Assembly (NCBI GenBank): GCA_041690295.1
Contig: JAWLHR010000001.1
Location: forward strand, 274,168-338,167
DNA length: 64,000 nt
Direction: 5' to 3'
Origin: Bdellovibrionales bacterium
GTDB taxonomy: Bacteria > Bdellovibrionota > Bdellovibrionia > Bdellovibrionales > UBA1609
Below the pieces are notes generated by a model. That model saw only the letters and a program-made list of their open reading frames with translations, did no database searches and had not been told where the DNA came from. The position numbers and the translations under genes are program-made. Each line of letters begins with the position of its first letter. Positions within the stretch are counted from its first letter, which is position 1. Below, piece after piece: positions 44,934-62,805 of this stretch.

Positions 44934-45028
44934 GGACCTATAAGATAACGATTGGGGCAAATGAGGCAAGATCACGGCCCTTGATTTTCGATCATTTTCT
45001 TGCTTGCCTTTACATAGGGAGCGGGGCC

Positions 45029-45811
45029 ATGAAAAGAATTCTATCTCACATCTTCAATCCCTCCCCTTCGCGCGTTGAAATTCCGCCGGAATTCTTTAGC
45101 GAAAAACGACGGCGGATCATCGACAAATACGATATCCCGCCGACAAAACTCGAAAAAGTTTTCTCCGATAAGGAATTGGAGGAAATAAAAAAGCTGGCCC
45201 TCGAAAACTCAACGCAAACCATTCGCCCCGGCTCAAAAAACTTCTGTGTGGATTGGAGTCATTTAAAGCCGATTGTACTGCCGAAATTTAAACCCTGGAT
45301 GCCGAAGACTGGACGGGTCAATGAACAGCTGAACGTGACAACGAATGCGTTTCGGCCACATACGGATATGGCGGTCGATCCAGGTCAGCCGAACGTCATT
45401 CAATTCATAGTGCCGGTGGACGCTTGGGGAAAAGACCGGCAAGCTTCGATCGTCTTTTTCAAGCAACGGTTTTTAGGCTCCCGCTTATCGCCTCTTTTTC
45501 AAAGACCCGAAGGCTCGGTTGAACGATGGCTTGAGAGTCGGAACCGTTATATCGAGGGCTATGAACCAAATCATAAAATTGACGAGTCCCTGCTGAAAGG
45601 TCCACTGGCGCATGTTGAGCCATTACTCTTATCCGGCCTTTCCGTTTCCGAAATCCTGACTTATGAGCCGGGTGACCTTATTGTGTTCGGCACCTCTCGT
45701 GTCCATTGCTCCGGCGATATGATGTTTCATGGGCTCTTTGCTAAGTTGTTCTTGCTACCCAGGATCCAGATCGGTCTGGATGAGCCTCAGTCACGCCCAG
45801 GTTCAGAGTAA
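45029..45811 (+). CDS. Putative 2OG-Fe(II) oxygenase-like (DSBH) protein
   Basis: HTD...PGDLIVF....VHCS: HxD...H facial triad. Confidence 0.55.
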   Translation: MKRILSHIFNPSPSRVEIPPEFFSEKRRRIIDKYDIPPTKLEKVFSDKELEEIKKLALENSTQTIRPGSKNFCVDWSHLKPIVLPKFKPWMPKTGRVNEQLNVTTNAFRPHTDMAVDPGQPNVIQFIVPVDAWGKDRQASIVFFKQRFLGSRLSPLFQRPEGSVERWLESRNRYIEGYEPNHKIDESLLKGPLAHVEPLLLSGLSVSEILTYEPGDLIVFGTSRVHCSGDMMFHGLFAKLFLLPRIQIGLDEPQSRPGSE

Positions 45812-45940
45812 AATAAACAGGGTACCAATCAAATCCATGAAATTTTCCTGACCGTTTTTGAACATATTTCCAGTTGAACAGTTAGGCACATTCTGTCAGA
45901 AAAACGACTTCTCATCCCAAAATAAAGAAGAGGTGGAGAT

Positions 45941-47098
45941 ATGCCATTATTGTTCCTTTTCCTTTTGTTTCCCTTTGTGACGGCCAATGCCACTTCGGGT
46001 GTGATTACCGGTATCTCAGTTAACCCAGAGTTATTGCCAAAGGTGAAATGGAGCGGGGATCTCCGCTATAGCCTTTTGAGCTCGAAAGAAAAAGCTGAGG
46101 ATGCGCGATACTATCAGCAGCTTCGATTGCGAGTGGGATTCGATGCGGATGTAAATGAATCTCTGAAAACCAAAGTACGATTGGCCACGGGAACATCGGC
46201 GACTTCGACCAATCAAACTTTAGGAGACCCAAGTGACCCGGGAATGCCACGTCGAAGTTTCGGTATTGATCGCGCTTATATGGATTGGACCGCGAATAAG
46301 ACCACATCGGTTTGGCTCGGTCGCACAGCCAATCCATTTTGGCGCCCGGAAAATGTTCAAATTCTATATGACAACGATTTGGCGTTTGAAGGTTCGGTCC
46401 TGCGCTGGCGGAACAAATGGTCGGATTCGGAAGCTTTTTCCAATTTGGGTGGATTCATAATTTCCGAGAACTACGCCGAGGGAGAGGATTTGGTTGATAT
46501 CGCCTTAATTGGCATGGACCTCGGTTGGCTCAAAAAAGGTACGGATTGGCGATGGACATCGCGCATCGGACATCATCACTACCTCAACGTCAAGGACCGG
46601 ACCATCTCCCGCCTCGCTCGAGGGGCCAAGATCGATTCAACCTCTCCATCGGTTCCCCGCTATAAAGGCAACACGGTTTACGCCGAAGATCCTTCTTTGC
46701 CGGCGGCAGATCGGGTCTATCGATTCAAAAATGATTACGCTCTTTTTCAAGCGGGTACGGAGTTCGCCTATAATTTCGGATCGGTGGAAGGCCTATTCTT
46801 TTTTGAAGGCATTCGGAACACGGCGATCAGCCGGATGCGAGACGCCTTCCAAACCGGCCTTAAAATCGAATGGAAATGGTTCTCATGGACGGAAGCCTAT
46901 CTTCGCAAAGAGCCGGACTCCGTATTGGGCCAATTCAGTTATTTTGGATCGGATCAAGAAGGGTTTCGCCATGTCATGACTTTTCGCCTGGATAAAAACG
47001 TAAAGCTATGGTTGACCCGTTTCGATCTTGATCGACATTATGCCGAATCCAAGAGCAAATACGAGATCACATTCTTAGAACTTGTGGCCGCTTTTTAG
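45941..47098 (+). CDS. Putative outer-membrane porin
   Basis: Signal peptide, WSGDLRY, RLRVG, RLATG..TSTNQTLG, IDRAY, C-terminal Phe. Confidence 0.8.
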   Translation: MPLLFLFLLFPFVTANATSGVITGISVNPELLPKVKWSGDLRYSLLSSKEKAEDARYYQQLRLRVGFDADVNESLKTKVRLATGTSATSTNQTLGDPSDPGMPRRSFGIDRAYMDWTANKTTSVWLGRTANPFWRPENVQILYDNDLAFEGSVLRWRNKWSDSEAFSNLGGFIISENYAEGEDLVDIALIGMDLGWLKKGTDWRWTSRIGHHHYLNVKDRTISRLARGAKIDSTSPSVPRYKGNTVYAEDPSLPAADRVYRFKNDYALFQAGTEFAYNFGSVEGLFFFEGIRNTAISRMRDAFQTGLKIEWKWFSWTEAYLRKEPDSVLGQFSYFGSDQEGFRHVMTFRLDKNVKLWLTRFDLDRHYAESKSKYEITFLELVAAF

Positions 47099-47107
47099 AA
47101 TGAGGGT

Positions 47108-47878
47108 CTACGCTTTCGTGATGACCGGAGCGTTCATGAGGAGCTTGTCCTCGGGGTGGTCCAAAAACGGCTCTCGCCAAACCTCTCCCTGAGGCAGATA
47201 TCTCCGGATCGATTTTTGGTAAGCGTGTTCATCAAAGTGAACCACCGTCGCGCCTGATAACTTTGACTTCGCTGAAAAATAGAGGTTCCAACTCTGGGTG
47301 AACTCCGGAAGATATCGGTGATCGTAAGGCTTAAAGGGCAGGACCTCAGGCCGAAATTCATTTAGTTTCAATGACAGAAGGCCGAGTTGCAGGAAGTACA
47401 TCCGATTCATTGATGCATTTTCATAAGATCGAGGTTCAAACAGATAAGTTTGGAAACCGTTCTTTTCCAGAAACTCGACCATTTCATCGAAACCTGTCGG
47501 GCGGATCCGAATACTGACGATGTACTTCTCACCGGGTCTTTGTTTCTTCAGTTCAGACTCCAGGAAAGAGACGGATTCATGATTCCGGCGTAGGTCACGC
47601 CACTTGCCCACCTGGAAATTGTGTAACATTCTACAAGAACCGTTCACTGAGCCGTATGAGGTGAGCAGATGAGCCGCGGAATGCGCACCGGTGAAATCGA
47701 GTCCCACACAAGCGATCCGGTCATTATTAAGCATACGAGGGAGATTGGCAAAAAACTGGCCTTCTCCTGATCTGGATTTGGAGACGAGCGTGAACGAACC
47801 CAGTTTGGATCCGATGAAGCACCCCGAACCAAACAGCAGCAACTGTCTTAAAAAGAGACGTCGGTCGCTCTTATTCAT
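47108..47878 (-). CDS. Hypothetical protein with twin-arginine-like signal
   Basis: SDRRLFL plus hydrophobic stretch; VGLDFTGAHSAAHLL is weakly sulfotransferase-like. Confidence 0.55.
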   Translation of the reverse strand: MNKSDRRLFLRQLLLFGSGCFIGSKLGSFTLVSKSRSGEGQFFANLPRMLNNDRIACVGLDFTGAHSAAHLLTSYGSVNGSCRMLHNFQVGKWRDLRRNHESVSFLESELKKQRPGEKYIVSIRIRPTGFDEMVEFLEKNGFQTYLFEPRSYENASMNRMYFLQLGLLSLKLNEFRPEVLPFKPYDHRYLPEFTQSWNLYFSAKSKLSGATVVHFDEHAYQKSIRRYLPQGEVWREPFLDHPEDKLLMNAPVITKA

Positions 47879-48076
47879 TGGTAAGTAAAATTGTATAACG
47901 CGCCATTCCCGCGATTCAAGACAGTGGATCAACTCTGGACACTGGCCTGGAATTAACTTGCCTTGAACTGACGTCAGGCCTCTCGGCCGTGCCTCATTCG
48001 AGTTGAAGGCCGAATGCCAAGTGGCTATATTCCCTACATGAATAAGATCGACAATAGGCTTGATCGGAGGGGTTCA

Positions 48077-49036
48077 ATGTATCTTTTGACGGTTATCCTT
48101 TCTCTTTTCATGGTCCAGGCTCAGGCCCACGATTTAACCACAATCGTTTACGCGGCCCCCACCACGATCACCGCGGGCATCCCCTATGTTGCGCAAGCCA
48201 ATGGGTATTTCAAAGAGCAGAATATCAAAATCGAAGAGAAGCTTTTCGCTTCAGGGCGCGAATCGCTTGAGGCTCTGCTCGCGGGACACGCCCAACTTCA
48301 GTCGGTTTCCGAGACACCGTTCATTCACGCGGTATTGCAGGGTAACAAAATCGTTACAATCGCGACTGTGGCCGTGCACGGCGAAGCGAAGCTCATCGCG
48401 CGGAAAGATCGCGGAATAATAAAAGAGACCGACTTAAAAGGAAAAAAGGTGGGGACCGCTCCCGGCACGAATTCGGATTATTTCATGCACGTCTTCTTGA
48501 GTGGCCACGGGTTGAAGCCGAATGACATCGCCATATTCAACATGAAGGCGCCGCAAATGAAAACCGCGCTCGTGAAAGGCGACATCGATGCCTATTTCGC
48601 CTGGGAGCCTCACATCTATTACGCTAAAAAGGAGCTGGGCGACAAAGCGATTGTGTTTAATCCGGGCCAACGATATAGCGGCCGGCAGACGATCAACATG
48701 AATGCGGACTTCGCGGAAAAGAATCCGGATGTAGTCCGGAGCATCGTTAGAGCCCTTTTGCGGGCGGAAGAATTCATCAAGAAGAATCCCGAGAAAGCAC
48801 GGGAAATCGTCGCGGCCAAATTGGGAGTTAAAATCGAGGACATCGATCCCATGTGGAAAGAAATCGATTTCAAAGTCCAGTTAGATAACGGCATTCTTCC
48901 GCTCTTTGAAAAGATCGGTAAGTGGTCCGCCGAGATGAATAAACGAGCGGCGCCGATTCCCGATTTTAAAAAACACATTTATGCGAAGGCGCTGCTAAGG
49001 GAAAAAGAAAATGTGGTGGCACCCGAACTTCGTTAA
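48077..49036 (+). CDS. ABC substrate-binding protein, NMT1/SsuA/TauA family
   Basis: Signal peptide, DLKGKKVG..PGT, GDIDA...WEP. Confidence 0.9.
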   Translation: MYLLTVILSLFMVQAQAHDLTTIVYAAPTTITAGIPYVAQANGYFKEQNIKIEEKLFASGRESLEALLAGHAQLQSVSETPFIHAVLQGNKIVTIATVAVHGEAKLIARKDRGIIKETDLKGKKVGTAPGTNSDYFMHVFLSGHGLKPNDIAIFNMKAPQMKTALVKGDIDAYFAWEPHIYYAKKELGDKAIVFNPGQRYSGRQTINMNADFAEKNPDVVRSIVRALLRAEEFIKKNPEKAREIVAAKLGVKIEDIDPMWKEIDFKVQLDNGILPLFEKIGKWSAEMNKRAAPIPDFKKHIYAKALLREKENVVAPELR

Positions 49037-49781
49037 GGTGCGCGACCACGCGATCACAGTCCTGTTCCTCATGGGTGTATTCGGCGCTTGGGAATGGTTA
49101 TACAGATCCAACCTCTATCCGCCTCACCTCTTCCCCGGCCCGAGCGCGGTGTGGCCGGCCTTGGTGGAAATGGCCAAGTCCGGTGAACTGGCCCAAGATT
49201 TTTTGGCTTCCTCATTCAGATGGATAACGGGATTTATTATCGGGACGGTTCTGGGTGTACCGTTTGGCATGATTTGCGGACGCTTGAAATTCATTCGGAT
49301 GTCAATCGGCGGATTGCTCAACGGTTTAAGTTCCATTCCAAAAATCGTTATGATTCCGATCGCGATACTATGGTTTGGGCTGGGAGAAACGCAGAAGGTC
49401 TCGCTGGTGGCCTGGGGCGCCTTTTTTCCCGTCTGGCTCAGCTCCATGGAAGCGGCCCTGCACACGCCCCGGGAACTTGTTTGGGTGGCGCGATCTTATA
49501 ATCTGACGCCATTGCAGTCGGCGCTCCACATTTTTTGGCCGAGCGCCATTCCTCATATCGTGGCCGGCATACGCATCGCCATCTCGACGGCCACCTTTTC
49601 TCTCGCGGCGGCCGAGATGTCGGGCGCGTTCTCCGGATTGGCCTATCGAGTTTTTTATAGTCACGAAATGTTTCAGACCGATAAGATGATGGCCGGAATA
49701 TTTGTCATTACGGTGCTGTCTTGGTTGGTGAACTATGCGTTTATGAAGCTGGTCAAGTACTTGGCCCCTTGGGCGACTTAA
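49011..49781 (+). CDS. ABC permease, SsuC/TauC family
   Basis: FPGPSAV, IPIAILWFGLGE, AFFPV, AAEM; start uncertain. Confidence 0.9.
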   Translation: MWWHPNFVKVRDHAITVLFLMGVFGAWEWLYRSNLYPPHLFPGPSAVWPALVEMAKSGELAQDFLASSFRWITGFIIGTVLGVPFGMICGRLKFIRMSIGGLLNGLSSIPKIVMIPIAILWFGLGETQKVSLVAWGAFFPVWLSSMEAALHTPRELVWVARSYNLTPLQSALHIFWPSAIPHIVAGIRIAISTATFSLAAAEMSGAFSGLAYRVFYSHEMFQTDKMMAGIFVITVLSWLVNYAFMKLVKYLAPWAT

Positions 49782-49791
49782 CCGGCAGGAG

Positions 49792-50589
49792 ATGGAAGTG
49801 CGGTCGGGTTACGAAATACAAGATCTCTGCTTTGGATACACCGACAGGCGGCGCCTATTCGACAATTTCAACTTCCGTGTGCGCAATGGCGAGTTCGTCA
49901 CCATTACGGGACACTCGGGTTGCGGAAAAAGCACCTTCCTCTATTTGCTCGCTGGTTTATTGAAAGCCAACAGCGGCTCGATTCGGTTTAATCAAAAGGT
50001 CAATCCCCCACCGGGTCCGGACCGTTTTACGGTCTTCCAATCAGACAATCTGTTCTTCTGGAAAACCGCCTTGGGAAACGTCGCTCTGGGACCAAGGCTC
50101 GTACATCGCCTGACAAAAAAAGAATCGCGGCGCGAAAGTCTAGCGCTGCTTGAACGCGTGGGTTTGAAAGGGTTCGAGAAATACTACCCGCACCAACTGA
50201 GCGGCGGCATGCGACAAAGGGTCGGCTTGGCGAGAGCCTTTGCCGTGCGCCCTGATGCCATTCTCATGGATGAGCCCTTCGGGTCATTAGACGCGCAAAC
50301 TCGCGTAGAAATGCAAAATCTGCTGATCGAAATTTGGGGTGAGTATTCAGGAACCATCGTCTTCATCACGCATGATATCGACGAGGCCATAACGTTATCC
50401 GATCGAATTGTGGTGTTCGGCGGTGAACCCGTTCACATCAAAACGGAGATCCGGATACCGGAAGAAAGACTTTTACGGCGTTCGAAAACTTTCTTGCCAA
50501 GGCGAGAGGCGATTCGGGACGAAATCATGAACATGTTGGGCGCGGAACAGGGGGCCAGAATAAATCATGAAGATCTTCGCTTATCGTGA
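49792..50589 (+). CDS. ABC ATPase, SsuB/TauB family
   Basis: GHSGCGKST, YPHQLSGGMRQR, LMDEPFGSLD, ITHDIDEA. Confidence 0.93.
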   Translation: MEVRSGYEIQDLCFGYTDRRRLFDNFNFRVRNGEFVTITGHSGCGKSTFLYLLAGLLKANSGSIRFNQKVNPPPGPDRFTVFQSDNLFFWKTALGNVALGPRLVHRLTKKESRRESLALLERVGLKGFEKYYPHQLSGGMRQRVGLARAFAVRPDAILMDEPFGSLDAQTRVEMQNLLIEIWGEYSGTIVFITHDIDEAITLSDRIVVFGGEPVHIKTEIRIPEERLLRRSKTFLPRREAIRDEIMNMLGAEQGARINHEDLRLS

Positions 50590-52327
50590 CCTATCGTCTT
50601 CGCATATTGACTTCGAAAAGTTGAATCCGGGATATCGGCCCGTGAAAGTGAGCCAAGACTGCTGGTTTGTTTGCAGCCAGGATTTATATGACGATCATGA
50701 ACACACTATCGCCTTCCTCGGCGATCTTTTCAATTTGGAAGACCTGAAGCGGAAATACGGACACGAGTCGACGGCTTCTGAGTTCGAATATTTAGTGAAA
50801 GCCATTAAAGATGGAACCTTTCGTAATGAAGAACATGAAGGGTCGTTTTGCCTGATCGTTTATGAGAAAGCCTCCGGCCGCTTTTCGGTTCATACGGATC
50901 CATTCGGTGATCTGTACCCCTATTACTCGGTGACGGATAAATTCGTTTTGATCTCCACACACATGACGGATTTTTCCGATCCAAGGTATTTCGAACTGAA
51001 TCCCGACTGGATTCGAAGATACTTCCAAGGCAATGACACTGTTGATTTAATGACCGTCATCAAGGGCGTGAGCCGGCTTCGCAGCGGGCGTTATCTTCAA
51101 ATTCAAGGGCAACAGGCGGTTGAACATCAATATTTCGATCTTCTCGAGAAGATCCGGACTCAGATGGCGAAACCGCGCCTGGAGATTTCCATTGATGAAG
51201 CCGTCGACGAATTCTCCAGAATTACGATCGCGAACCTGCGATCGGTTTTTAAGAAATACAAGAAACCGATTTTGTTCCTTTCCCAAGGCATAGACAGCGT
51301 CAGTTTGCTCGCCCTTATGGCCCAAGCCGGGCTGCCGCTCCTGTCGATGACAAGAATTCCGGACAATGACTTCACGGATGAATGCCTTTCGATGCACAGA
51401 AGGATTCTTGAAAAAGTTCCCCACGAAAATCATCACCATAAGATTATCGGCGATCGAGTCTTCTTGGAATTGCAGAAGAGCTATTACACTCAGCCGGACA
51501 ACAACACATGGCAAACTCTCGGCATCAATCATGGTAAGTCCGTGGTGCCGTCTCTTGAGTTGGGCGCGGACTGCGTGATTTCGGCCAGCATGGGTGATTT
51601 CTTGTTCATCCACCGGACGCGGTATTTGTTCACGCATTGGCTGGCCCAAACCGGAAGAGGAAAAGGCGACGACTCGAAACTCGAAAACCTAAAGAACGAT
51701 TTTTTCGCAAGCCTCCCCGGTTTCGAGAACGATTACGCCTACAACCCGCATGAAATCAACGAGCGGCTCTTGCGCCTCTTTCGCGCGGCGGACCATGATT
51801 TCTGGCGGTTTTTCGCCGAGAATCTGCACATTTGGAGAGGCGTTTCCCACGACAGGGATAACCGGCTGGCCGGCAAGATCAGCGTTGTCGATCCTTTTAA
51901 AGACACAAGACTCTTCGATTTCTTCTATTTGTTACCGGAGGACCACCACCTCTTGTCGATGAAGCAATCGATCTTTCAGGAAAAAATGATCACCCGGACC
52001 TTTAATGAAAAGGTCTATTTACAAAAAAAGGCGAATCCATTCGCCTTAGGATTGGTCGCTTACAAATATCAAGATGCAATCGAAGGCGATTTGCAAAATG
52101 CGCTTGACTTGCTCAATCAGCTTCAGGTGGAATCATACGACTACTATCAAAACCAATTGTCGGAACAGAAGCGCAGAGGTTCCATGGATCTAGTCCTCTG
52201 CCGGATGCTGACTTTTTATTATTGGCATCAGAATTGGCTTGCGGCACGGCGAACCCGGCGCACGTTCTGGCGTGGCGTTTTAAGGCCGGTCATTCAAGCG
52301 TTCACGCCCACTCACCCGAGGAGTTAG
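50567..52327 (+). CDS. Asparagine synthetase-like protein (degenerate Ntn domain plus PP-loop domain)
   Basis: GDLFNLEDLK, EGSF, TDPFG..P.YY, LFLSQGIDS, MGDFLF, DPFKD.RL; no N-terminal Cys. Confidence 0.75.
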   Translation: MKIFAYRDLSSSHIDFEKLNPGYRPVKVSQDCWFVCSQDLYDDHEHTIAFLGDLFNLEDLKRKYGHESTASEFEYLVKAIKDGTFRNEEHEGSFCLIVYEKASGRFSVHTDPFGDLYPYYSVTDKFVLISTHMTDFSDPRYFELNPDWIRRYFQGNDTVDLMTVIKGVSRLRSGRYLQIQGQQAVEHQYFDLLEKIRTQMAKPRLEISIDEAVDEFSRITIANLRSVFKKYKKPILFLSQGIDSVSLLALMAQAGLPLLSMTRIPDNDFTDECLSMHRRILEKVPHENHHHKIIGDRVFLELQKSYYTQPDNNTWQTLGINHGKSVVPSLELGADCVISASMGDFLFIHRTRYLFTHWLAQTGRGKGDDSKLENLKNDFFASLPGFENDYAYNPHEINERLLRLFRAADHDFWRFFAENLHIWRGVSHDRDNRLAGKISVVDPFKDTRLFDFFYLLPEDHHLLSMKQSIFQEKMITRTFNEKVYLQKKANPFALGLVAYKYQDAIEGDLQNALDLLNQLQVESYDYYQNQLSEQKRRGSMDLVLCRMLTFYYWHQNWLAARRTRRTFWRGVLRPVIQAFTPTHPRS

Positions 52328-53407
52328 ATGGCGAAAAACACAGGCCGCACGTTTTGGCTTTACGACGGACGCCAGTTTTTTAATAAGAATTCGGCCCTCG
52401 AAAGCGCCGGCGACATATCCCGCGTGAGTTTTCATCATCATGATGAGGCCTTTTCCAAAGCCAATTGGCTGGTTGAACCCGAGAAGAGTTGGCCGGATCT
52501 TTTATGCGAGCGCGCCTGCCAATTGCGGGACTCGTATGACCATCTTCGGCTTTGGTACAGTGGTGGTGTCGATAGCCATACGGTTTTAATGACTTTTATC
52601 GAGAACAAGATTCCACTGGATGAAATTTGTATCATGCGCACCAGTCCCACCGCGGACTATGAAGACCCCGGCAACAGCGAGATCAATTTCGTCGCCTTGC
52701 CTTTTCTGCGCCGGATTCAGCCCCTGCTGGGCAAAGCGAAAATCAATCTCCTCGATCTAGGGCCGCGACATTACCAAAAATTTTTCTCCGATCCAGATTG
52801 GGCTAAACAGGTCAACACGATCGACTTCCGGCTTTCTTACGTCAGTACCGCGAGCCTTCTCCTACCTGAGTTAATCTCACCGATTGAACGAGGCCGTAAA
52901 CTGGCCAACGTCACCGGAGGAAACAAGCCCCGGTTGGAAATGGAGAATGGACGATATTACGCCTTCTACTGGGACGAATATCTCAAATGGGACTTGAACG
53001 AAGCGACCCGTGAAAGTTTGGAGGAGTTTTACTTTTCGTCCGAACTGCCGGAAGTTCATATCAAACAGTGCCACATGGTCAAAAATCACCTCAAAGCGAA
53101 ACACCCGGAAATGACTGACCTTAAGGAGTTCTTCAGAAACGACCATCCTGTTTACGTGAACGAACTCAACAGCATTGTCCGGCTCCCCGCCCCTGGCGGC
53201 GTTTCATTAGGCAAATCCTCGACACTTCTCACCCCCAAAGCGGCCTATCAACTGCAGCAAGCGCGCGAAGGAAATGAAGAGGTGTTCCTTCTTTACCAAC
53301 GTCGGCTTGAGGAACTGGAGTCCTTTGATCAATGGAGGTTTAACAATGGACATATCTCGTCTGGATTCATCGGCATCAAATCCCAGCGCTACGATCTCGG
53401 AGCGTAG
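52328..53407 (+). CDS. PP-loop (adenine nucleotide alpha-hydrolase-like) protein of unknown function
   Basis: RACQLRDSYDHLRLWYSGGVDSHTVL, VTGGNKP, HIKQCHMVK. Confidence 0.65.
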   Translation: MAKNTGRTFWLYDGRQFFNKNSALESAGDISRVSFHHHDEAFSKANWLVEPEKSWPDLLCERACQLRDSYDHLRLWYSGGVDSHTVLMTFIENKIPLDEICIMRTSPTADYEDPGNSEINFVALPFLRRIQPLLGKAKINLLDLGPRHYQKFFSDPDWAKQVNTIDFRLSYVSTASLLLPELISPIERGRKLANVTGGNKPRLEMENGRYYAFYWDEYLKWDLNEATRESLEEFYFSSELPEVHIKQCHMVKNHLKAKHPEMTDLKEFFRNDHPVYVNELNSIVRLPAPGGVSLGKSSTLLTPKAAYQLQQAREGNEEVFLLYQRRLEELESFDQWRFNNGHISSGFIGIKSQRYDLGA

Positions 53408-53411
53408 TGAC

Positions 53412-55001
53412 GTGAGGCTCTGGAGCAAGTATGCCCCCATTCTGATGATTGCGGCTGTTATATTATTGTTCACTCTGATTCAACCTGTACACGCGGATTT
53501 GAAGCCACAAGGTGAACTCCGCATCGCCGTCGAATCGCTTGGTAACGAAACTCTCGATCCGGTGATGGGACCGGCGACCAACACCAAGATTTACCTTCCA
53601 CTCATTTACGATTCACTCGTGGGCGCGGATAAGGCCAATTCCGGAATCTCAAAGGAAACTGGCGTGGCCAAAGACTGGAAAATTTCGAAAGACGGCAAGA
53701 CTTACACATTTTACCTCCGCCAAGGCATCAAGTTTCACAACGGAGATGAACTGACCGCCGAAGACGTCAAATTCTCGTTTGAGCGCGCGATCGGGCCCAA
53801 AGCGGTCTCTTCGCTTTCGGGTGTGTTGGCCAAAATTATCGATAAAATCACGGTTGTCGATCCTTACACGGTCACCATCACGCTGAAAGAGCCGAGTTTT
53901 TCCTTTTTGCTGGATATCTCGATCCTGGTGGGTTCGGAATCCATGATTGTTCCGAAAAAGTATATCGAAAAAGTGGGTGAGGAAAAATTCGCCCTCGAAC
54001 CGATCGGCAGCGGCCCTTATCGATTCAAAGCGCGCCATGCCGGCTCGTCGATCGAGTTCGAAGCCATGCCCCACCACTGGTTGGTTGGCGTCCCCCGGTT
54101 TGCGAATGTCAGCGTCATGGGGGTTTCCGAGCAAGGGACAAGGCTGACCATGTTACGAAGCGGCCATGCGGATGTGATCACCATCGGCCGGCGATATGTG
54201 GACGAGTTAAAGAAACAGGGATTTTTGATCGCGACCAAGCCCGCCAGTCACAACATGCACATGCTCTTCAACAATCAATGGGAAAAGGACAATCCATTAA
54301 ATAACAAAAAAGTCCGTCAGGCGATCGCACTGGCCATTGATAGCCAGACCATACTTAAAACTATTATGCTCAACGGCGGTCAGTTGACCCGCTGTTGGAT
54401 CGCGGATGTAGCGTACGATTCGCGCCCTTCCGGCCTCTGCGATCCCCAGAAATACGATCCCAAAGCGGCGAAGAAACTTCTTCAAGAAGCGGGTTATCCG
54501 GATGGCATCGACATCACCTTCAAGTCGTTTGCCAAGACGGGTGTGCCTGAAAAATTTGAGATCGACCAGGCCATCGCCGGCTATTTACGTGCCGTTGGAA
54601 TCCGCGCCAAGATTGAGGTCGGCGAATACGGCGCTTATCGGACCCAATGGCCGAAACCCGAAAGCCATCCGAAGACCATCGCGACCAATCCGACTTCATC
54701 GCAGGTGGTGATTGGCTCGCTGCTGCAAGTTTTCTGGGGATCGGACGGCCTCCTCTCCACCACGCGAAACGTAAGTCCGAAAGCGGATAAGGCGATCAAG
54801 CACATGCTCGCCTCGCCCGATCTCAAGGCCTACAAAAAGCGCCTGATGGACGCGTGGAAGATTTTGATCGAGGACGCTCACACCGTTATGCTGTTCAGCA
54901 TAGATGCGAAGTACGCGGCCAATAAGAAAAAGATTTCTAAAGAATGGCCCATGGGTACAAGTACGGCTGATCCCAACTTGCGCGCTCTCGTGAGCCGGTA
55001 A
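53412..55001 (+). CDS. ABC substrate-binding protein, family 5 (peptide/nickel)
   Basis: YTFYLRQGIKFHNGDELTAEDVKFS, PIGSGPY, KVRQAIALAID, YDPKAAKKLL. Confidence 0.92.
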   Translation: MRLWSKYAPILMIAAVILLFTLIQPVHADLKPQGELRIAVESLGNETLDPVMGPATNTKIYLPLIYDSLVGADKANSGISKETGVAKDWKISKDGKTYTFYLRQGIKFHNGDELTAEDVKFSFERAIGPKAVSSLSGVLAKIIDKITVVDPYTVTITLKEPSFSFLLDISILVGSESMIVPKKYIEKVGEEKFALEPIGSGPYRFKARHAGSSIEFEAMPHHWLVGVPRFANVSVMGVSEQGTRLTMLRSGHADVITIGRRYVDELKKQGFLIATKPASHNMHMLFNNQWEKDNPLNNKKVRQAIALAIDSQTILKTIMLNGGQLTRCWIADVAYDSRPSGLCDPQKYDPKAAKKLLQEAGYPDGIDITFKSFAKTGVPEKFEIDQAIAGYLRAVGIRAKIEVGEYGAYRTQWPKPESHPKTIATNPTSSQVVIGSLLQVFWGSDGLLSTTRNVSPKADKAIKHMLASPDLKAYKKRLMDAWKILIEDAHTVMLFSIDAKYAANKKKISKEWPMGTSTADPNLRALVSR

Positions 55002-55016
55002 GATAATTTTGGTGTC

Positions 55017-55940
55017 ATGCTGAAGTTTCTGATTCGTCGTACAATGCAATCCCTTGTCACGGTCTTCTTGCTCTTTACGATCGTTTTTTTGATGACGCGG
55101 GCAACGGGAGATCCCGTGGGCCTTCTCGTGCCGCCTGAGGTTGGTGCTGAAACGGTGGCACATGTCCGCCAGAACCTTGGCCTAAATGAGCCCTATTATG
55201 TGCAATACGCTCTCTTTCTAAAAAGTATTCTCACCGCGGACCTGGGCACGTCCTTTCTGGCCCGTCGGCCGGTGATGGATCTGATTCTCGAGCGTTTGCC
55301 CGTCTCGATGATTTTGGCCGTTGCCAGTATGTTGCTTGGAGTTCTTTTGGCTTTTCCTCTGGGAATTCTCTCCGCACTTAAACGCGGCCGCAAGATTGAC
55401 AGTTGCATTCAAATTTTCGGTGCGTTCGGAATCGCGACCCCGCAATTTTGGATCGGCCTTATTCTGATCCAGATTTTTGCCGGCCACTTGGGCCTGCTCC
55501 CCGTGGGCGGCGCCGAATCCTGGCGGCATTTTATTTTGCCCACTTGCACATTGGGATTGCTTCAGGCTTGCAGTATGTTGCGAATACTTCGCTCGAACAT
55601 GATTGAAGCGCTCGGCACTGATTTTGTCGCACTCGCGCGGGCGAAGGGTCTTTCGGAAGCTCGTGTGGTGGGCGTTCACGCCCTTGGCAATGCCGTGCTC
55701 CCGGTTCTCACGTTCGGCGGACTTCTGCTCGCTTCTCTTATGACCGGGACAATCGTGGTGGAGTCCGTTTTCGCGCTTCCAGGCCTTGGCCGCCTGGCCT
55801 ATGACGCCGCTCTTTTTCGGGACTATCCGCTCGTTCAAGGCGTGGTGATCGTCGCCGGCGTCATCATCATTGCCATCAATTTGCTTATTGATGTTTCTTA
55901 CGCCTTCATTGATCCCCGTATTCAGTTGGATAATTCGTGA
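55017..55940 (+). CDS. ABC permease DppB/OppB-like
   Basis: DLGTSF, ARAKGLSE, VESVFALPGLG, RDYPLVQG, IDPRI. Confidence 0.92.
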   Translation: MLKFLIRRTMQSLVTVFLLFTIVFLMTRATGDPVGLLVPPEVGAETVAHVRQNLGLNEPYYVQYALFLKSILTADLGTSFLARRPVMDLILERLPVSMILAVASMLLGVLLAFPLGILSALKRGRKIDSCIQIFGAFGIATPQFWIGLILIQIFAGHLGLLPVGGAESWRHFILPTCTLGLLQACSMLRILRSNMIEALGTDFVALARAKGLSEARVVGVHALGNAVLPVLTFGGLLLASLMTGTIVVESVFALPGLGRLAYDAALFRDYPLVQGVVIVAGVIIIAINLLIDVSYAFIDPRIQLDNS

Positions 55941-56782
55941 TTCGATCTCGGCTGCCCTGGGTCTCCATTTTTATACTTTTCGTTTTCCTGATGATGGCGA
56001 TTTTGGGCGACCTCATCGCACCCCAAGACATGTACGCGCAAAATCTCATGAAACGCCTTGAACCGCCCGTATGGATGGAAGGCGGCAGTTGGGCGCACAT
56101 TTTCGGCACCGATGCTTTGGGAAGGGACATTTTGAGCCGGTTGATCGGGGGAGTGCGAACCTCACTGGCGATTGGAATCATCGGGCTTTTAATCGGGGGT
56201 GGAATCGGTGGTGCGGTCGGCATCATCGCCGGCTATTCGGGCCGGTACGTGGACACCATCATCATGCGATTGGCGGATGCTTCACTCTCCTGTCCCATGA
56301 TCTTGTTCGCTCTCCTTCTATCGGTCTCTTTGGGCAGCGGCATCACCTCCGCCTTAACCGCGATTTGTATGGTGATTTGGGCGCCGTTCGCGCGCGTAGT
56401 CCGCTCCGAAGTGCTGGTCATTCGTGAAATGGATTACGTCAAGGTGGCGCAGATCTCGGGTGCCTCATCCATACGAGTTTTGTTCCGTCATATCTTGCCC
56501 AATGTGGCCAACACCTTGATCGCCTTTGCCGGTTTACAAATCGGCTTTATCATTATCCTTGAGGCGACGCTCAGTTTTCTTGGAGTCGGGATTTCTCCCC
56601 CAACTCCGGCTTGGGGCTCGATGACCGCCGAAGGAAGAGAATACCTTGCGACCCATTGGTGGGTTTCGGTGATACCTGGAACCGCGATTACGATAACGGT
56701 CGTCGCGTTCACTTTGTTTGGTGATTGGCTGCGTGACCGGCTCGACCCTCGCCTTGGCCGAAAAGATTGGCATCCGAGCTAG
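55937..56782 (+). CDS. ABC permease DppC/OppC-like
   Basis: FGTDALGRDILSRL, RHILPN, LSFLGVG, GDWLRDRLDPR. Confidence 0.92.
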   Translation: MIRSRLPWVSIFILFVFLMMAILGDLIAPQDMYAQNLMKRLEPPVWMEGGSWAHIFGTDALGRDILSRLIGGVRTSLAIGIIGLLIGGGIGGAVGIIAGYSGRYVDTIIMRLADASLSCPMILFALLLSVSLGSGITSALTAICMVIWAPFARVVRSEVLVIREMDYVKVAQISGASSIRVLFRHILPNVANTLIAFAGLQIGFIIILEATLSFLGVGISPPTPAWGSMTAEGREYLATHWWVSVIPGTAITITVVAFTLFGDWLRDRLDPRLGRKDWHPS

Positions 56783-56805
56783 CCGTCATCTAGAATTATC
56801 GGAAT

Positions 56806-58392
56806 ATGAGGCAACTGCGAAAGAATTCGGATCTCCTGATTTTGAACATGCCCGTTCTCTTTCCAGTTTGCCCGCCGCTCGGACCCGCCATCATCAAGGG
56901 TCAGCTCTCGAAACATGGATACAGCTGTGAAGTCTGGGACTTGAACATCGAGCTTTTTCAGATCGAAAAATTCCGATCCCTGTTCACAACCGAATACGAA
57001 TTGCTTGTTTTCAAACCTCCGCAGTCGTCTTCGCGCTTTATCGACTATTACGAAAAACAAGGGTTACGCGAGGTCTTTCAAGCCTGGGCGGACAACGTGA
57101 TCAAGGCCAATCCCAAAACTCTGGGCCTGAGCCTTTATTCGTTTCATTCCGGTCATTTCGGTGAACGGTTGATTTTTGAAGTCAGGGACCGCGGCTATCG
57201 CGGCCGTATCGTACTCGGCGGCCCGTTCGCCCACGACCTCCACCGAAAGCCCCATTTAAGGGAATTTTACCCGCAAGACGTGGACGTCATCGCGGGAGAA
57301 GGTGAACTGGCCATTCTTAGTTATCTAAAGGGGGATCTCAACTACCCGGGCATTAACTCCGCTCCCGTCCCCTTGAACGACCTGAATGCGATGCCGATTC
57401 CCGAATATGAGGACGGCCAATTTGAACCGTTCGACCGAATCGAAGAAGAAGAGGGGCTCAACAAGGTCTATATTACGGCTTCACGCGGGTGTGTGAGGCG
57501 GTGCACGTTTTGCGATATTAAAAACATGTGGCCCAAGTATCGATATCGAAGCGCGGAACATATCTTTCGCGAAATCGTTTATCTTCACGAAAAGTTCAAT
57601 CGCACCGAGTTCAAGTTCACGGACAGTCTCATAAACGGCAACCTGAAGATGTTGTCCGAGCTCAGTGAGCTCATCGTTGACTACAAGGCACGAAAGCAAA
57701 AAAAACGTTGGATATTTTTCGGCAAAAAAAGTGATCCCCCGCGAATTCATTGGGGCGGCCATTTTATCTGTCGCACACGCGCTTCCACCCCACCGGAATT
57801 CTTTTCGTTGATCGCGAGAGCGGGCTGCTGTTATGTCAGCATCGGCGTGGAATCCGGTAGTGAACGCGTTCGCAAACATATGGGAAAGCCCTTTTCCAAC
57901 GAAGACCTGTTTTACACTCTTGAACAATTCAACCGGGTCGGCATCAGCGTCACGTTCCTGATGGTGATTGGCTATCTCACCGAAACCGAAGAGGACTTCC
58001 AGCAAACACTTCAGCTTTTTAAAGATTGTAAGGATCGGGGGCTTTTGGCCTCGCCGGAGAAATGGGCTTGCGTCCAAGGCATCGAACTCGGCCCGACTCT
58101 GACTCTGCCCCCTGACACAGAGGTTCGACACCTCGTTGAAAAAGAGATAGGGGAGACGCCCTCCAATTCACATTGGACCTACAACGGCTTGGATCGCTTT
58201 ACCCGCTTGGAACGGTTATTCAGAGCCATGGTATTTATTGAGGAAATGGGCTATTCACATCTCCTCAAAGGCCAACTGGGCTCGCGCTACGGACATCTCT
58301 GGAATGAATTTATCAACTTTGAAAACTTCCAAAGAGTGGACCGGGATGTGATTGAAGTTCTCGCCAATGCCGGCTATTTCAAAAACGCCTGA
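56806..58392 (+). CDS. Cobalamin-dependent radical SAM enzyme
   Basis: B12-binding N-domain (PPLGPAI, IVLGGP, GEGE), SRGCVRRCTFC, GVESGS. Confidence 0.9.
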   Translation: MRQLRKNSDLLILNMPVLFPVCPPLGPAIIKGQLSKHGYSCEVWDLNIELFQIEKFRSLFTTEYELLVFKPPQSSSRFIDYYEKQGLREVFQAWADNVIKANPKTLGLSLYSFHSGHFGERLIFEVRDRGYRGRIVLGGPFAHDLHRKPHLREFYPQDVDVIAGEGELAILSYLKGDLNYPGINSAPVPLNDLNAMPIPEYEDGQFEPFDRIEEEEGLNKVYITASRGCVRRCTFCDIKNMWPKYRYRSAEHIFREIVYLHEKFNRTEFKFTDSLINGNLKMLSELSELIVDYKARKQKKRWIFFGKKSDPPRIHWGGHFICRTRASTPPEFFSLIARAGCCYVSIGVESGSERVRKHMGKPFSNEDLFYTLEQFNRVGISVTFLMVIGYLTETEEDFQQTLQLFKDCKDRGLLASPEKWACVQGIELGPTLTLPPDTEVRHLVEKEIGETPSNSHWTYNGLDRFTRLERLFRAMVFIEEMGYSHLLKGQLGSRYGHLWNEFINFENFQRVDRDVIEVLANAGYFKNA

Positions 58393-59147
58393 TCGCGTGC
58401 CGGTTCCGGCAGCGTTCGCCGAAGCTTGTCCAACCAGGTGTGCGGATCATCTTGGACGTGTTCAAATTTTTCTTTCAGAAAATGGAAGTCATGGAGAAGT
58501 GATCGGGCCTTCTGCTCCTGATCGTCAAAAAAGAATTGGGCGGCCATGGTGGCGCCTAAGAGACAAAAAACTCCATTTGTTTTTTCCAGCCCCTTATTCA
58601 TCCATGTGATCGCGCGAGACAACGCCTGCTGGTCGCCCTCGCCGGTGAACGCCTGGGATAAGAGCTTGTATGTCTCACGGAACCCGCTTCGCCACGCGTG
58701 AAAGGGCGATTTATGAAAATGACAACTGCTCGCGATCTTCTCGATCACGACGTAATGGGAGCCGGCGACTTCAGCGGTAAAGTCGAGCGCCATGGATTTC
58801 TTGTGTTCCAATACCCTGGCTTTCGGCCATAACTTCACGGCTCCGTTCCCGTAAACGAGGTCGTTGACTTCGTTTCGGCAGCGCCACACGTATACGGAAT
58901 TTTCTTCCGGCGGAAAACTTTGCCCCCAACTGAATGTGAAATCCTGTTCAATTATGTTGTCCGCATCGACCGAGAAAAAAAACTCCGCCCCACTAAGTTC
59001 AGCGGCTTGGGACCAAGCTTGGGCGATAATGGGGATCCCGTGAATCCGTCTGGCGCGGGGAAACCGCTCGGAAAGCAGCCGCCAATGTTCATCCGCATAA
59101 GGCTCGTCCAGTGAGAAAAAGAAAATGTCAAAACGGTCGGGATCCAT
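58374..59147 (-). CDS. GT-A-fold glycosyltransferase-like protein
   Basis: DIFFFSLDEP.A, VDADN (DxD), VW...N.VN.L.YGNGAVKLWP, AWRSGFRE..KL. Confidence 0.6.
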   Translation of the reverse strand: MDPDRFDIFFFSLDEPYADEHWRLLSERFPRARRIHGIPIIAQAWSQAAELSGAEFFFSVDADNIIEQDFTFSWGQSFPPEENSVYVWRCRNEVNDLVYGNGAVKLWPKARVLEHKKSMALDFTAEVAGSHYVVIEKIASSCHFHKSPFHAWRSGFRETYKLLSQAFTGEGDQQALSRAITWMNKGLEKTNGVFCLLGATMAAQFFFDDQEQKARSLLHDFHFLKEKFEHVQDDPHTWLDKLRRTLPEPARDQAFLK

Positions 59148-59168
59148 CTGATTTCTTTCGCACACGGA

Positions 59169-59936
59169 TCATGAACCGAAAATATTGAACGCCACGTGCC
59201 AAGCATCATTGGCATTCACTAAGAACTTCACTTTCTCCTTGAGCATGTAGGCGTGGATGTAATCGTTAAACGCCTTGTATTCACCCTCTTTTCGGCTCGG
59301 CCCCCCGAGCATCATGACGATGATGTCAGAAGGTCTTACATAAGGGTGCCAAGCCGTGAGTAAAAACAAAGCCGAGCTATACAGATCGGAGTTGATGTAA
59401 ATCACTTTTCTTCGTGCATTCGGATCATAGGACGCCAAAAAATCCGGTAGCGTGTTTTGAAAGTAGCCGGCGATTAATTTCACTCCCCTGCGGCTCTTTT
59501 GCTTCGCCAGATACGCTCTGTCCTCATCGGTTAACAGGTAATCTTCACGCCCCCTATGCACTCGACCATCCACCTGCCAGGCCTCGGGGTACCCTTTGAA
59601 TGAATCGAAGCCGTAAAGTCTGGCGTCGCGTTCATTCAGTAAGTCGGCCACCAAAGACAAAGACTCGCCACGATAGACACCGAACTCAAAATAATCCAAT
59701 GGATCGCCGGTCAACGAGAAGACGCTTTCAAAAAAGCGTTTTTTTAAATCGCGTTTGGCGGTGGCCGAATTCAGTTCGCCGTCGACGCGAATGCAGCCGG
59801 ATTTCCGTAATTCGGTTTGGAGTTCGGCCTGGCTTGACCAATGCAGTTGAACGTTCGGTAAAATCCGTCGGTAGGTCTTTTTTCGTCCGGGAATTCTAGG
59901 ATCCCACCCAATACGAAAATCGTTTTTAGTTTCCAT
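59169..59936 (-). CDS. TylF/MycF-like methyltransferase (divergent)
   Basis: EFGVYRGES, YGFDSFKGYPE, GYFQNTLP, INSDLYSS, GEYKAF. Confidence 0.8.
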   Translation of the reverse strand: METKNDFRIGWDPRIPGRKKTYRRILPNVQLHWSSQAELQTELRKSGCIRVDGELNSATAKRDLKKRFFESVFSLTGDPLDYFEFGVYRGESLSLVADLLNERDARLYGFDSFKGYPEAWQVDGRVHRGREDYLLTDEDRAYLAKQKSRRGVKLIAGYFQNTLPDFLASYDPNARRKVIYINSDLYSSALFLLTAWHPYVRPSDIIVMMLGGPSRKEGEYKAFNDYIHAYMLKEKVKFLVNANDAWHVAFNIFGS

Positions 59937-59960
59937 GGCCTCCGCCCGCCCGGATCTTGA

Positions 59961-61952
59961 CTAATGGCGCACGAGAAAATCATGCGTCTGCAGAATCCCC
60001 AACTCTTCCGGCCTAAGCATTCGAGCTATACCATGACCTCGACGTCTATAATAGTAGCTGGTGTTCCGGATAAACGCTTCAAATGGCATTTTATGAGTGT
60101 CGGGTAAAGCGCATTGGAAATAAAATTCGGATTTCTTGGGCTCGAGCATCACCCCTGTGTTGATCGTCTTTTGCCAATCATGGTCAAATTCACCGAACAC
60201 CGGGTATTCGCGGCCATGCTTAATCCAAAGCTTGTCATTTAACTCAAAAAGTTCTTCGTCATTGATATTGAACCGGCTTCGGCAAAATTCCCTTAAAAAT
60301 CGCTCGAATTCGCTCCGTTGCACTTGAGCGGCGATGGCGACAAATCTTTCGTATCGTGTGTAACGAGCGCCGAGGAACTCAAAATACTTCTTCGTGGTCT
60401 CCCGGCTGACATAAATATTAATCCAACCTGAACGCACGCTGTTCATCATTTCCTCGTCGAGCGCCTTGAGAATGCCATTCAGAAAAAAGGAATCATCCCT
60501 CCGGACTGCTTCCATAAAAGAGGAATAGAAGTCCCTAACCGGGATCTGATATTTATAATAAAGGCCCATGGCCAAACCATAAGTTCCGCCCAAAAGGTGA
60601 AGTCCCGTGGCGATATGGCTTTCCACCCAAGCTTCGCGCCACTTGTCGTTTGGAAGCGTATTGGTGGCGATGACATACTCTGAAGTTTCAATCAGTTCCG
60701 GATCCGGAATCAGGCTGAAATTGTCATGCATGCTGCCCGGTAGGGTTTTAAATCCATACCGTTCGCGTGATTCAGGACTCGCCAATTCGGTATTTGGTAT
60801 CAGAACTAAAATATTCACGTCGATCGACGTGTATCGCGCACGCTCCAGACTATCGTAAATACCGGTTAAGAAGGACTCCTTGGTCTCGTGTGGTAAACCC
60901 AAGATCAACTGATTGTAATAGGCGAACTGATTCTGACTGAATTGGCTCGCGATCTCTCGAACCTGAGTCGGGTCGAGATTCTTCCGCTTCACCGCCTTGA
61001 GAGTTTCGGGATTCTCCGATTGGGTGGCAAGCGTAATGCCCTCGAGAAGACCGACGTTATGCCGTTTACGAGCGATCGAAACGACTCTTCGAGGGCTGCT
61101 CTTCGCCCAGGTGAGCATCAGTTTATGCGGATAACCTGTCTTTTGTTTTATTTCGACGATCCGATCAGCGAGCTTTTCATCCATATCGGAAATTCCAAAG
61201 TTGGCGTCGGTGAAATAAAGATGCCGCAGTTTGGTTTTTTCGAACCAGTCTAATTCCTGATAAATTTTATGGCTGAAGGATTTGATTTTCGATTGAGTCA
61301 GCGAGCCCCAGTTGCAAAAACCGCATTGGTAAGGGCAACCTCGATTGGATTCAAAGATGGCGGTCCATTGGTCCGAGCCATTGATCATCTCGTCGAACAA
61401 ACCCATCGTGTAGGGGCTTGGCAGTTGGCTTAAATCTTTGATCCTCGGGCGCGGGCTGTTTTTCTTGATGTCGCCACCTGGTTCCCGGTAAGTGATCCCA
61501 AGGACTGAACTCAAACTTTTTTCGCGCGAACGTAAAGTTCGGAGAATCTCAAGAAAGGTCACTTCACCTTCGCCGTGCGCCGCGATATCAACTTGCGGAT
61601 GGTTTCGAAGAAATTCTACCCCCTCATCGGGAACATCCGGCCCGCCGAAAATGATGGTGCACTTTGGGTATCTCGCTTTGATCAATTCGGCTAATTTGAG
61701 ATTCCATCGCGTGTTCCAACAGTAAGACGAAAATCCGACAACCGTCGGATTTACGACTTTTTCAATCGCCTCATTCACCGGTTCGCGCAACGCAAAAAGA
61801 CCGCCCAGATCATAGGTCTCGCGAATATCATCAAACTTATGCGCGTAAGCCCACAATGTCGCGGCTGAGTAGGGCAGGTAATTCACATTCCCCGGAAAGT
61901 AGACCTTGAATAGATAAACGGACTTACGCTTTCTCGGCCACAGCCACTTCAT
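59961..61952 (-). CDS. Cobalamin-dependent radical SAM enzyme
   Basis: LPYSAATL, GFSSYCWN, IIFGGPD, HGEGE, ESNRGCPYQCGFCNWG, TDANFG, ILGLPHET. Confidence 0.92.
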   Translation of the reverse strand: MKWLWPRKRKSVYLFKVYFPGNVNYLPYSAATLWAYAHKFDDIRETYDLGGLFALREPVNEAIEKVVNPTVVGFSSYCWNTRWNLKLAELIKARYPKCTIIFGGPDVPDEGVEFLRNHPQVDIAAHGEGEVTFLEILRTLRSREKSLSSVLGITYREPGGDIKKNSPRPRIKDLSQLPSPYTMGLFDEMINGSDQWTAIFESNRGCPYQCGFCNWGSLTQSKIKSFSHKIYQELDWFEKTKLRHLYFTDANFGISDMDEKLADRIVEIKQKTGYPHKLMLTWAKSSPRRVVSIARKRHNVGLLEGITLATQSENPETLKAVKRKNLDPTQVREIASQFSQNQFAYYNQLILGLPHETKESFLTGIYDSLERARYTSIDVNILVLIPNTELASPESRERYGFKTLPGSMHDNFSLIPDPELIETSEYVIATNTLPNDKWREAWVESHIATGLHLLGGTYGLAMGLYYKYQIPVRDFYSSFMEAVRRDDSFFLNGILKALDEEMMNSVRSGWINIYVSRETTKKYFEFLGARYTRYERFVAIAAQVQRSEFERFLREFCRSRFNINDEELFELNDKLWIKHGREYPVFGEFDHDWQKTINTGVMLEPKKSEFYFQCALPDTHKMPFEAFIRNTSYYYRRRGHGIARMLRPEELGILQTHDFLVRH

Positions 61953-62710: not shown

Positions 62711-62756
62711 ATTGAAAGACCGTTGGCGGCCGCTGGAACTGGGTGGCCCGCCAATT

Positions 62757-62772
62757 CGGCATACCGCTTGCT
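62757..62772 (+). promoter_or_regulatory. Sigma-54 -24/-12 promoter candidate
   Basis: CGGCAT-ACCGC-TTGCT upstream of the 62806 start. Confidence 0.55.
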
Positions 62773-62805
62773 TTGCAATGTCCCATTCGCAAGCGGAGTC
62801 CGCGA

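Follow-up and report, generated by a model that had tools for sequence, protein, structure and literature searches.

A block of 15 genes from a member of the Bdellovibrionales, an order of predatory bacteria, is a rare mosaic and not a conserved pathway, and its enzyme families are common to large phages. The block occupies positions 45029..61952 of the stretch of DNA that was analysed (the window, 64,000 nucleotides; positions 274168-338167 of contig C1 of genome G000), with a TatD gene on one side and an M23 gene on the other. The genome is 2.88 Mb long and 99.89% complete, and the contig measures 338 kb. A reading of the same DNA made from its letters alone (the original prediction) had taken these 17 kb for a single pathway and had made no mention of phages. 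We suggest tentatively, with a probability of roughly 0.4, that the block is instead a host-adapted patchwork of two phage-shared modules, which likely decorates a sugar-type structure at the surface, with a backbone likely made by genes elsewhere in the genome. Decoration of a glycan or protein encoded elsewhere had been the second option of the original prediction, and it is the best fit to our results. The genes are as follows, ATP-binding cassette being written ABC, 2-oxoglutarate 2OG, twin-arginine translocation Tat, and S-adenosylmethionine SAM.

45029..45811, plus strand: Fe(II)/2OG-type oxygenase; no Pfam match, H111-x-D113...H226 and K239 invariant in 6 aligned relatives
45941..47098, plus strand: putative porin; PF16930 (Porin_5), host-type gene
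47108..47878, minus strand: Tat-like protein, fold not assigned; RRxFL N-terminus, no Pfam match
48077..49036, plus strand: SsuA/NMT1-like solute-binding protein; TIGR01728 at 153 bits, cut-off 163.5
49011..49781, plus strand: SsuC-like ABC permease; BPD_transp_1
49792..50589, plus strand: SsuB/TauB-like ABC ATPase; ABC_tran
50567..52327, plus strand: Asn-synthetase-like protein (asn); GATase_7, without the catalytic Cys, altered PP-loop LSQGIDS
52328..53407, plus strand: PP-loop amide-synthetase-like protein (PP), 359 aa; SGGVDS, Pfam-less, mainly viral family
53412..55001 (start inferred), plus strand: DppA-like family-5 binding protein; SBP_bac_5
55017..55940, plus strand: DppB-like permease; BPD_transp_1
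55937..56782, plus strand: DppC-like permease; BPD_transp_1, no ATPase gene next
56806..58392, plus strand: B12-binding radical SAM protein rs1; B12-binding and Radical_SAM, CX3CX2C at 229
58374..59147, minus strand: GT-A-fold glycosyltransferase-like protein; invariant DxD, no Pfam match
59169..59936, minus strand: TylF/Methyltransf_24 O-methyltransferase-like protein; Methyltransf_24/TylF match
59961..61952, minus strand: B12-binding radical SAM protein rs2, KedN5-like; 283 bits, cut-off 700, CX3CX2C at 206

All 15 open reading frames (ORFs) named in the original prediction are real: they are unbroken by stops or frameshifts, and every non-transporter gene among them is single-copy in the genome. 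The tight coupling from ssuA to rs1 was borne out, with successive gaps of -26, 10, -23, 0, about 4, 15, -4 and 23 nt; the value of about 4 nt between PP and dppA assumes that dppA starts at GTG 53412, and a start at 53406 would give -2. A second operon, rs2-tylF-GT-A, does converge on this run, with internal gaps of 24 and 21 nt and a 19-nt overlap with rs1. At the left end the oxygenase-, porin- and Tat-type genes are present as described, but they do not form one operon, since the Tat-like gene lies on the minus strand, where it faces the porin gene and points away from ssuA. A Pfam scan of 23 window proteins agreed with the family calls for Porin_5, NMT1/SsuA-like, BPD_transp_1, ABC_tran, GATase_7, SBP_bac_5, B12-binding with Radical_SAM (twice) and Methyltransf_24/TylF; the oxygenase, PP-loop, GT-A and Tat proteins had no Pfam match and were assigned through motifs and folds. 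No specific equivalog reached its cut-off in an NCBIfam scan of the block proteins. The predicted lack of a scaffold synthase also stood, in that none of the 15 genes matches a nonribosomal peptide synthetase, polyketide synthase, flippase or nucleotide-sugar family in Pfam. Across the genome the Condensation family (PF00668) gave 0 matches, with the control positive in 4 of 14 genomes; genome-wide searches covered Condensation and lasso-B, and not polyketide synthases, terpene synthases or phosphoenolpyruvate mutase. Contigs from four runs in four studies, one run possibly being the source sample, span 27, 27, 14 and 14 of 30 bins, and their depth is similarly low within the block and in its flanks. 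Short contigs bridge the asn/PP, dppB/dppC, rs1/GT-A and tylF/rs2 junctions, and none of the listed pieces spans PP/dppA.

Relatives were sought in 60, 120 or 383-384 Bdellovibrionales genomes, depending on the gene, and this check for co-occurrence came out negative: the full set was found in no other searched genome. Full-length PP, defined by a profile from 102 PP sequences run over 384 genomes of the order, occurs in three (G000, G006 and G039), and 41 others gave partial matches only, at E 5e-8 or weaker. The other enzymes are scattered, with GT-A in 7/60 relatives, rs1 and rs2 in 17/120 each, the oxygenase in 8/120 and TylF in 1/120. For asn we found two close relatives in 5.8 billion proteins and partial matches at 22-25% in 6 of 60 relatives. 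A search for SsuA at E<=1e-25 in 383 other genomes gave three matches, all of them outside the family, and DppA had none in 120 relatives at E<=1e-45. Relatives of the porin (45% identity) are present in two of five congeners, in unrelated surroundings. A TatD probe for the empty site matched nothing at E<=1e-30 in the five congeners and so carries no information on this point. Not one of 28 enzyme-anchored stretches from other Bdellovibrionales (part of the matches, together with one ssuA stretch) holds an Ssu- or Dpp-like gene, which also speaks against a conserved pathway.

Of the eight non-transport genes, six have viral or large-phage relatives. Relatives of PP lie in 49 IMG/VR loci and in 228 metagenome stretches, 80 of which were used. 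GT-A relatives occur in at least 606 viral stretches, 80 of which were used, and in two copies near the tail sheath gene of the cultured jumbo phage RsoM2USA. Among those 80 viral GT-A loci, rs2 relatives occur in five (E<=1e-74, within 6 kb of GT-A), asn in one and the oxygenase, weakly, in one; rs1 and PP relatives occur there too. Searches of viral contigs with single-protein patterns found no rs2, whose relatives appeared in the GT-A loci. The nearest Atlas clusters of the oxygenase are viral hypothetical proteins (score 0.93), and TylF matches a PHROG methyltransferase; the Tat-like protein shows no link to viruses. Among the matches collected, the top one is viral for rs2 (306 vs 253 bits) and bacterial for rs1 (271 vs 263), PP (229 vs 140 among classified loci) and the oxygenase; the gene pool is therefore shared and not simply viral. 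A FastTree analysis places the window PP, together with those of G006 and G039, in a single fork of 19 rows (support 91) that also contains metagenome contigs, some of which share gene families with IMG/VR loci; as the fork holds no IMG/VR row, the tree is unrooted and there was no clade test, it does not show the direction of transfer. GC content of the block is 48-55%, against 30-46% in viral PP loci, and both GC and GC at third codon positions (GC3) are host-like. The codon adaptation index (CAI) of the 15 genes lies at percentiles 6-43 of 1363 host genes, below the host median in every case; codon use within the host range and host-like GC together point to long residence in the host.

PP carries the SGGxDS pyrophosphate loop, with S78 and D82 invariant across 102 sequences and G79, G80 and S83 kept in at least 90%, and no Pfam model covers its family. 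Its predicted model (predicted local distance difference test, pLDDT, 93.4) has the fold of the adenine nucleotide alpha-hydrolase (AANH) superfamily. The top solved match is AsnB (1ct9; Z 11.1, root-mean-square deviation (rmsd) 5.2, 282 residues aligned), followed by human ASNS (Z 10.4), beta-lactam synthetase (1jgt, 10.3), TsnB9 (7ylz, 8.7) and CarA (1q15, 8.0), and uncharacterised Caudovirales proteins match far better than the solved folds (TM scores 0.72-0.84). PP is like AsnB, beta-lactam synthetase, CarA and TsnB9 in fold and PP-loop motif, but unlike them it has neither a glutaminase domain nor its Cys, and at 7-13% identity and rmsd 5.2-6.6 it forms a separate family. PDB sequence searches with PP and with asn returned nothing significant, and PP had no match among cultured annotated phages. 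A role as phosphoadenosine phosphosulfate (PAPS) reductase or ATP sulfurylase was rejected (Z <=7.6, under AsnB), and sulfur-transfer, NAD and GMP synthetases likewise reach Z <=7.6. By analogy with AANH chemistry, we suggest that PP may be an Asn-synthetase-shaped amide ligase, one that would make an amide by way of an adenylated carboxylate. In two further loci (L068:3786-5731 and L069) a class IV aminotransferase gene directly precedes PP. The Asn-synthetase-like call for the neighbouring asn held as far as its GATase_7 match, but the N-terminal catalytic Cys is absent: the protein starts MKIFA, and its relative P0017 is likewise without the Cys, so that class II glutaminase chemistry is not possible. 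Against TIGR01536 (asparagine synthetase B) asn scores 39.2 bits, with a cut-off of 267.1, and it has one phage relative, at E 6.5e-23.

The coupling of uptake genes to a PP-loop enzyme, which had been proposed for this block, recurs in viruses. Of 49 viral loci, 26 have PP directly beside TctC, TctA or DctP (at the level of 80%-identity groups, 15 of 35), and the same genes adjoin GT-A in none of the 80 control loci (0 of 34 groups); the Fisher p of 9e-6 on the 80%-identity groups is overstated, since kin are not independent. Because the uptake profiles had been built from the PP loci themselves, the count was repeated with Pfam. By that measure 23 of 91 distinct PP neighbours are TctC (13), TctA (6) or DctP (4), against 0 of 111 GT-A neighbours, a figure that leaves out 31 further GT-A neighbours as radical SAMs. 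The transporters beside PP belong to unrelated classes: tripartite tricarboxylate transporters (TTT), TRAP transporters, amino-acid solute-binding proteins with two permeases, and in this genome Ssu and Dpp. In four viral-looking metagenome contigs (L060, L062-L064) the genes after PP encode an amino-acid binding protein and two permease-like proteins, and no ATPase was recognised; this set resembles the Dpp set of the block in this respect. Given the adjacency in viral loci and its absence from the controls, import plus ligation looks like a real recurring module, an uptake system with an amide ligase that in this block takes the form of ABC importers.

The GT-A, radical SAM and oxygenase genes are part of a second, probably sugar-tailoring module, which recurs in phages and other Bdellovibrionales. 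The oxygenase retains the HxD...H triad (H111, D113 and H226) and the basic 2OG-binding residue (K239). In GT-A, D67 and D69 of the DxD motif are invariant in 13 sequences, and its fold matches B4GALNT1 (Z 11.6, rmsd 2.8, 143 residues aligned), with nucleotidyltransferases scoring close behind. Both rs1 and rs2 have a B12-binding domain followed by a CX3CX2C radical SAM domain, the B12 score being over the Pfam cut-off in rs2 and under it in rs1; rs2 reaches 282.9 bits against the KedN5 C-methyltransferase model NF033712 (cut-off 700). Full-length relatives of rs1 are 33% identical in large phages and 35-38% in Bdellovibrionales, and a quick tree with long branches gave the window protein no firm placement. 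Two of the rs1 relatives (G049:C106 and G249:C15) have one internal stop apiece. Twitch radical SAM matches accompany 7 of 9 GT-A stretches and 11 of 19 rs1, rs2 or oxygenase stretches of other Bdellovibrionales, and in phages the neighbours of GT-A include UDP-glucose dehydrogenases and carbamoyltransferases. GT-A and rs1 families sit in twitch radical SAM islands (NF033640) in other Bdellovibrionales and in phages, including RsoM2USA; the block, unlike these islands, has no twitch radical SAM, and the copy in this genome lies on another contig.

We propose that the first module (ssuABC-asn-PP, then dppABC) may take in a small acid or amine through its importers, and that both PP-loop proteins would use ATP to turn a carboxylate into an acyl-adenylate, from which they would make an amide. 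Because the glutaminase Cys is missing, ammonia or an organic amine would have to serve as the amine, and this would be a reason to have an importer. The second module (rs2-tylF-GT-A with rs1 and the oxygenase) would add C- and O-methylation, hydroxylation and sugar transfer, and the two may act on the same molecule, possibly with joint expression. A DegT aminotransferase gene lies within a few genes of PP in G006, G039 and L065, and the latter two also have an epimerase and GT-A; genome G000 itself carries GT2-DegT-epimerase loci outside the block. As bacterial relatives of PP and GT-A lie among sugar genes and such loci exist in this genome, a surface glycan is the most likely end product. 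One such locus (G000:C6:31544-45080; L144:1545-15081) has GT2-like, DegT and epimerase genes beside a gene for a secreted-looking protein of 2355 aa, and the same families flank PP and GT-A in G039; it is a possible backbone locus for the enzymes of the block.

Several results weigh against this proposal. Every equivalog score of the SsuA- and DppA-like proteins is under its cut-off, as with SsuA and the sulfonate-binding model TIGR01728. Of the two ABC importers predicted, the Ssu/Tau type is complete, with binding protein, permease and ATPase side by side, but the Dpp set consists of a binding protein and two permeases, with rs1 after dppC and, unlike DppABCDF and OppABCDF operons, no ATPase gene; further ABC ATPases are present elsewhere in the genome, and the Dpp permeases may share one of them. 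A promoter scan of the block was at chance level (14 found, 16.2 +/- 4.4 expected). In the nearest relative (L057, PP 71% identical) ssuB-asn-PP is kept at 67-71%, and then a citrate-synthase gene on the other strand takes the place of dppA; its contig is 4.4 kb long, so the other block genes could sit elsewhere in that genome. In four other loci that look bacterial (G006, G039, L059 and L065) PP has no recognised uptake gene next to it, and uptake is therefore not obligatory. Many phage PP loci have oxygenase or desaturase/lipid-type neighbours instead of sugar genes, so that the product may not be a sugar. Finally, the two modules are seldom found together: five of the 80 GT-A loci contain PP-type genes, and none of the 49 viral PP loci contains GT-A.

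Some of these results would be expected if the block were merely an insertion hot-spot, at which the first module, the Dpp set, rs1, the second module, the porin and the oxygenase arrived separately, without joint function and with importers that scavenge nutrients. The absence of the full set elsewhere, the divergence after PP in the 71% relative, the unrelated contexts of the porin, the four transcription directions and the lack of such importers in all 28 other enzyme loci agree with this explanation, which we consider unlikely but a serious competitor. However, ssuA to rs1 is a single run with gaps of at most 23 nt, all genes are intact, ssuB-asn-PP is conserved, and the adjacency of PP to uptake genes recurs in phages with unrelated transporters. 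The single pathway of the original prediction, read as one that would turn an imported precursor into a diffusible small molecule (such as a signal, a metallophore or an inhibitor), which the binding proteins might take up again, seems to us unlikely, though it too is a live alternative. In its favour, beta-lactam synthetase, carbapenam synthetase and TsnB9 are among the nearest solved folds of PP, carbapenem-type molecules are tailored by B12 radical SAMs and Fe/2OG oxygenases, and importers recur beside PP. The set is not conserved, however, no exporter or resistance gene was recognised in the Pfam scan, and in other bacteria the same enzymes occur among sugar genes.

A decayed prophage or a recently captured phage fragment with no present role is very improbable. 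It would account for the viral relatives of six of the eight non-transport genes and for CAI values below the host median, but none of the 23 scanned proteins belongs to a virion, integrase or replication family, GC and GC3 resemble those of the host, relatives have diverged to 65-71% with frames intact, and the same families are spread across the Bdellovibrionales. We give equally little credence to a lasso-type locus for a ribosomally synthesized peptide with post-translational modification (RiPP), where asn would be the macrolactam cyclase, the B12 radical SAMs would methylate the peptide and Dpp would handle it. Lasso cyclases are Cys-less AsnB homologues, and there are weak matches to RiPP radical SAM models, far under cut-off. 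Yet asn has no NF033535 match at E<=0.01, and the lasso leader peptidase B (PF13471) gave 0 matches in the genome, with the control positive in 2 of 14 genomes. Short ORFs in four gaps between genes (the gaps only, not within genes or at a distance) encode 15-32 aa, are chance-like and have no evident precursor pattern. A separate locus of the genome (G000:C2:33455-35206; L149:9456-11207) encodes a RiPP-maturation B12 radical SAM (TIGR03975, 505 bits, cut-off 281.85), near two more DppA-like genes.

Among known systems, the patchwork that we favour is closest to the host recognition cluster (HRC) of pelagimyophages and cyanomyophages, a hypervariable region in which glycosyltransferases, sugar-nucleotide enzymes and radical SAM cassettes abound and for which a role in changing the O-chain of the host has been proposed (Zaragoza-Solas et al. 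2020, PMC7029224). The block is likewise a non-syntenic, variable set of glycosyltransferases, radical SAMs and oxygenases. An HRC is part of a phage genome, where vrlC and gp14 flank it and tail fibres accompany it, whereas the block lies in a bacterial chromosome, has ABC importers and includes no virion family among the scanned proteins; the parts of that paper covered make no mention of asparagine-synthetase-like or PP-loop genes. The block works like an HRC, yet its chromosomal position and lack of fibres keep it out of that class. Marine viral contigs carry tctA and 2OG-Fe(II) oxygenases whose role was stated to be unknown (Roux et al. 2014, PMC4164917); the parts of that paper covered do not link viral tctA to a PP-loop enzyme, and the uptake genes of the block are Ssu- and Dpp-type ABC genes. 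Bdellovibrio MAT adhesins resemble phage tail fibres (PMC10769870, in the covered parts of which 'glycosylat' occurs 0 times). Together with the one S74-domain protein of this genome, they make fibre decoration a conceivable target. We found no paper on such an enzyme-importer set in Bdellovibrionota, in a search that left subscription journals outside. O-antigen and capsule loci of the WbpS/WbpG type combine DegT, epimerases and glycosyltransferases with AsnB-like and PP-loop enzymes that amidate sugars. Unlike such loci, the block has no flippase, polymerase or nucleotide-sugar enzyme in the Pfam scan, and importers are interleaved.

Some further observations concern neighbouring genes and related loci. 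The Tat-like protein has two relatives (40-43%) among 1.84 billion representatives, and resembles weakly the product of a gene beside PP in G006 (BLASTP E 9e-4, not significant over background; independent profile E 0.046). Its assignment by eye as a sulfotransferase was dropped (hhalign 0.2% against a phage candidate; no Pfam, PDB or Atlas match), and an order-wide profile search, which returned only its three seeds, was circular and was not counted. The left flank (43328-44975, minus strand) holds ThiF (TcdA-like) and TatD genes; at 38867-40486 (minus strand) lies a gene for a Cys-rich, low-complexity, secreted-looking protein of 539 aa, and at 62743-63480 (plus strand) one for a protein of 245 aa, neither with a Pfam match. 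Many Bdellovibrionales have large twitch radical SAM arrays (L325, L331, L336, L327 and L338, in G318, G017, G249, G320 and G037) in which small PP-loop proteins and rs1-type genes occur, some with carbamoyltransferase- or amidinotransferase-like genes, and they match jumbo-phage-island profiles; these larger arrays may be a better target than the window block. The gene order at L340:462-5633 (G011:C181) is an rs2-type gene, a member of an unknown phage-island family, a short DegT-like gene and a UDP-glucose dehydrogenase gene; each of these families also occurs in phage GT-A loci. In Ralstonia phage RsoM2USA (L203:6230-16370) an epimerase gene, the two GT-A genes and a twitch radical SAM gene lie near the tail sheath gene, which makes this phage a ready test system for virion glycosylation.

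Tens of kilobases of large aquatic phage genomes go to such enzyme islands, whose products are unmeasured in the literature examined. That predatory bacteria carry these families in intact, host-adapted form suggests a gene pool common to two kinds of bacterial predators, and our results point to a new amide-synthetase family that is repeatedly paired with unrelated uptake systems. Should the block prove to be no more than an insertion hot-spot, it would be an ordinary variable island that contains a few uncharacterised enzymes. A bolder view, which we regard as doubtful, is that Bdellovibrionales and jumbo myoviruses share an undescribed system of import, amide linkage and tailoring that decorates surface glycans or host-recognition fibres, of which the window would hold a complete bacterial copy. 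A binding-protein transporter of any class would then feed the new PP-loop family, and the radical SAM, oxygenase, methyltransferase and GT-A enzymes would finish the decoration. If this were true, cloneable soluble enzymes and binding proteins would make the chemistry of the phage islands testable, and it would suggest a surface chemistry common to both kinds of bacterial predators.

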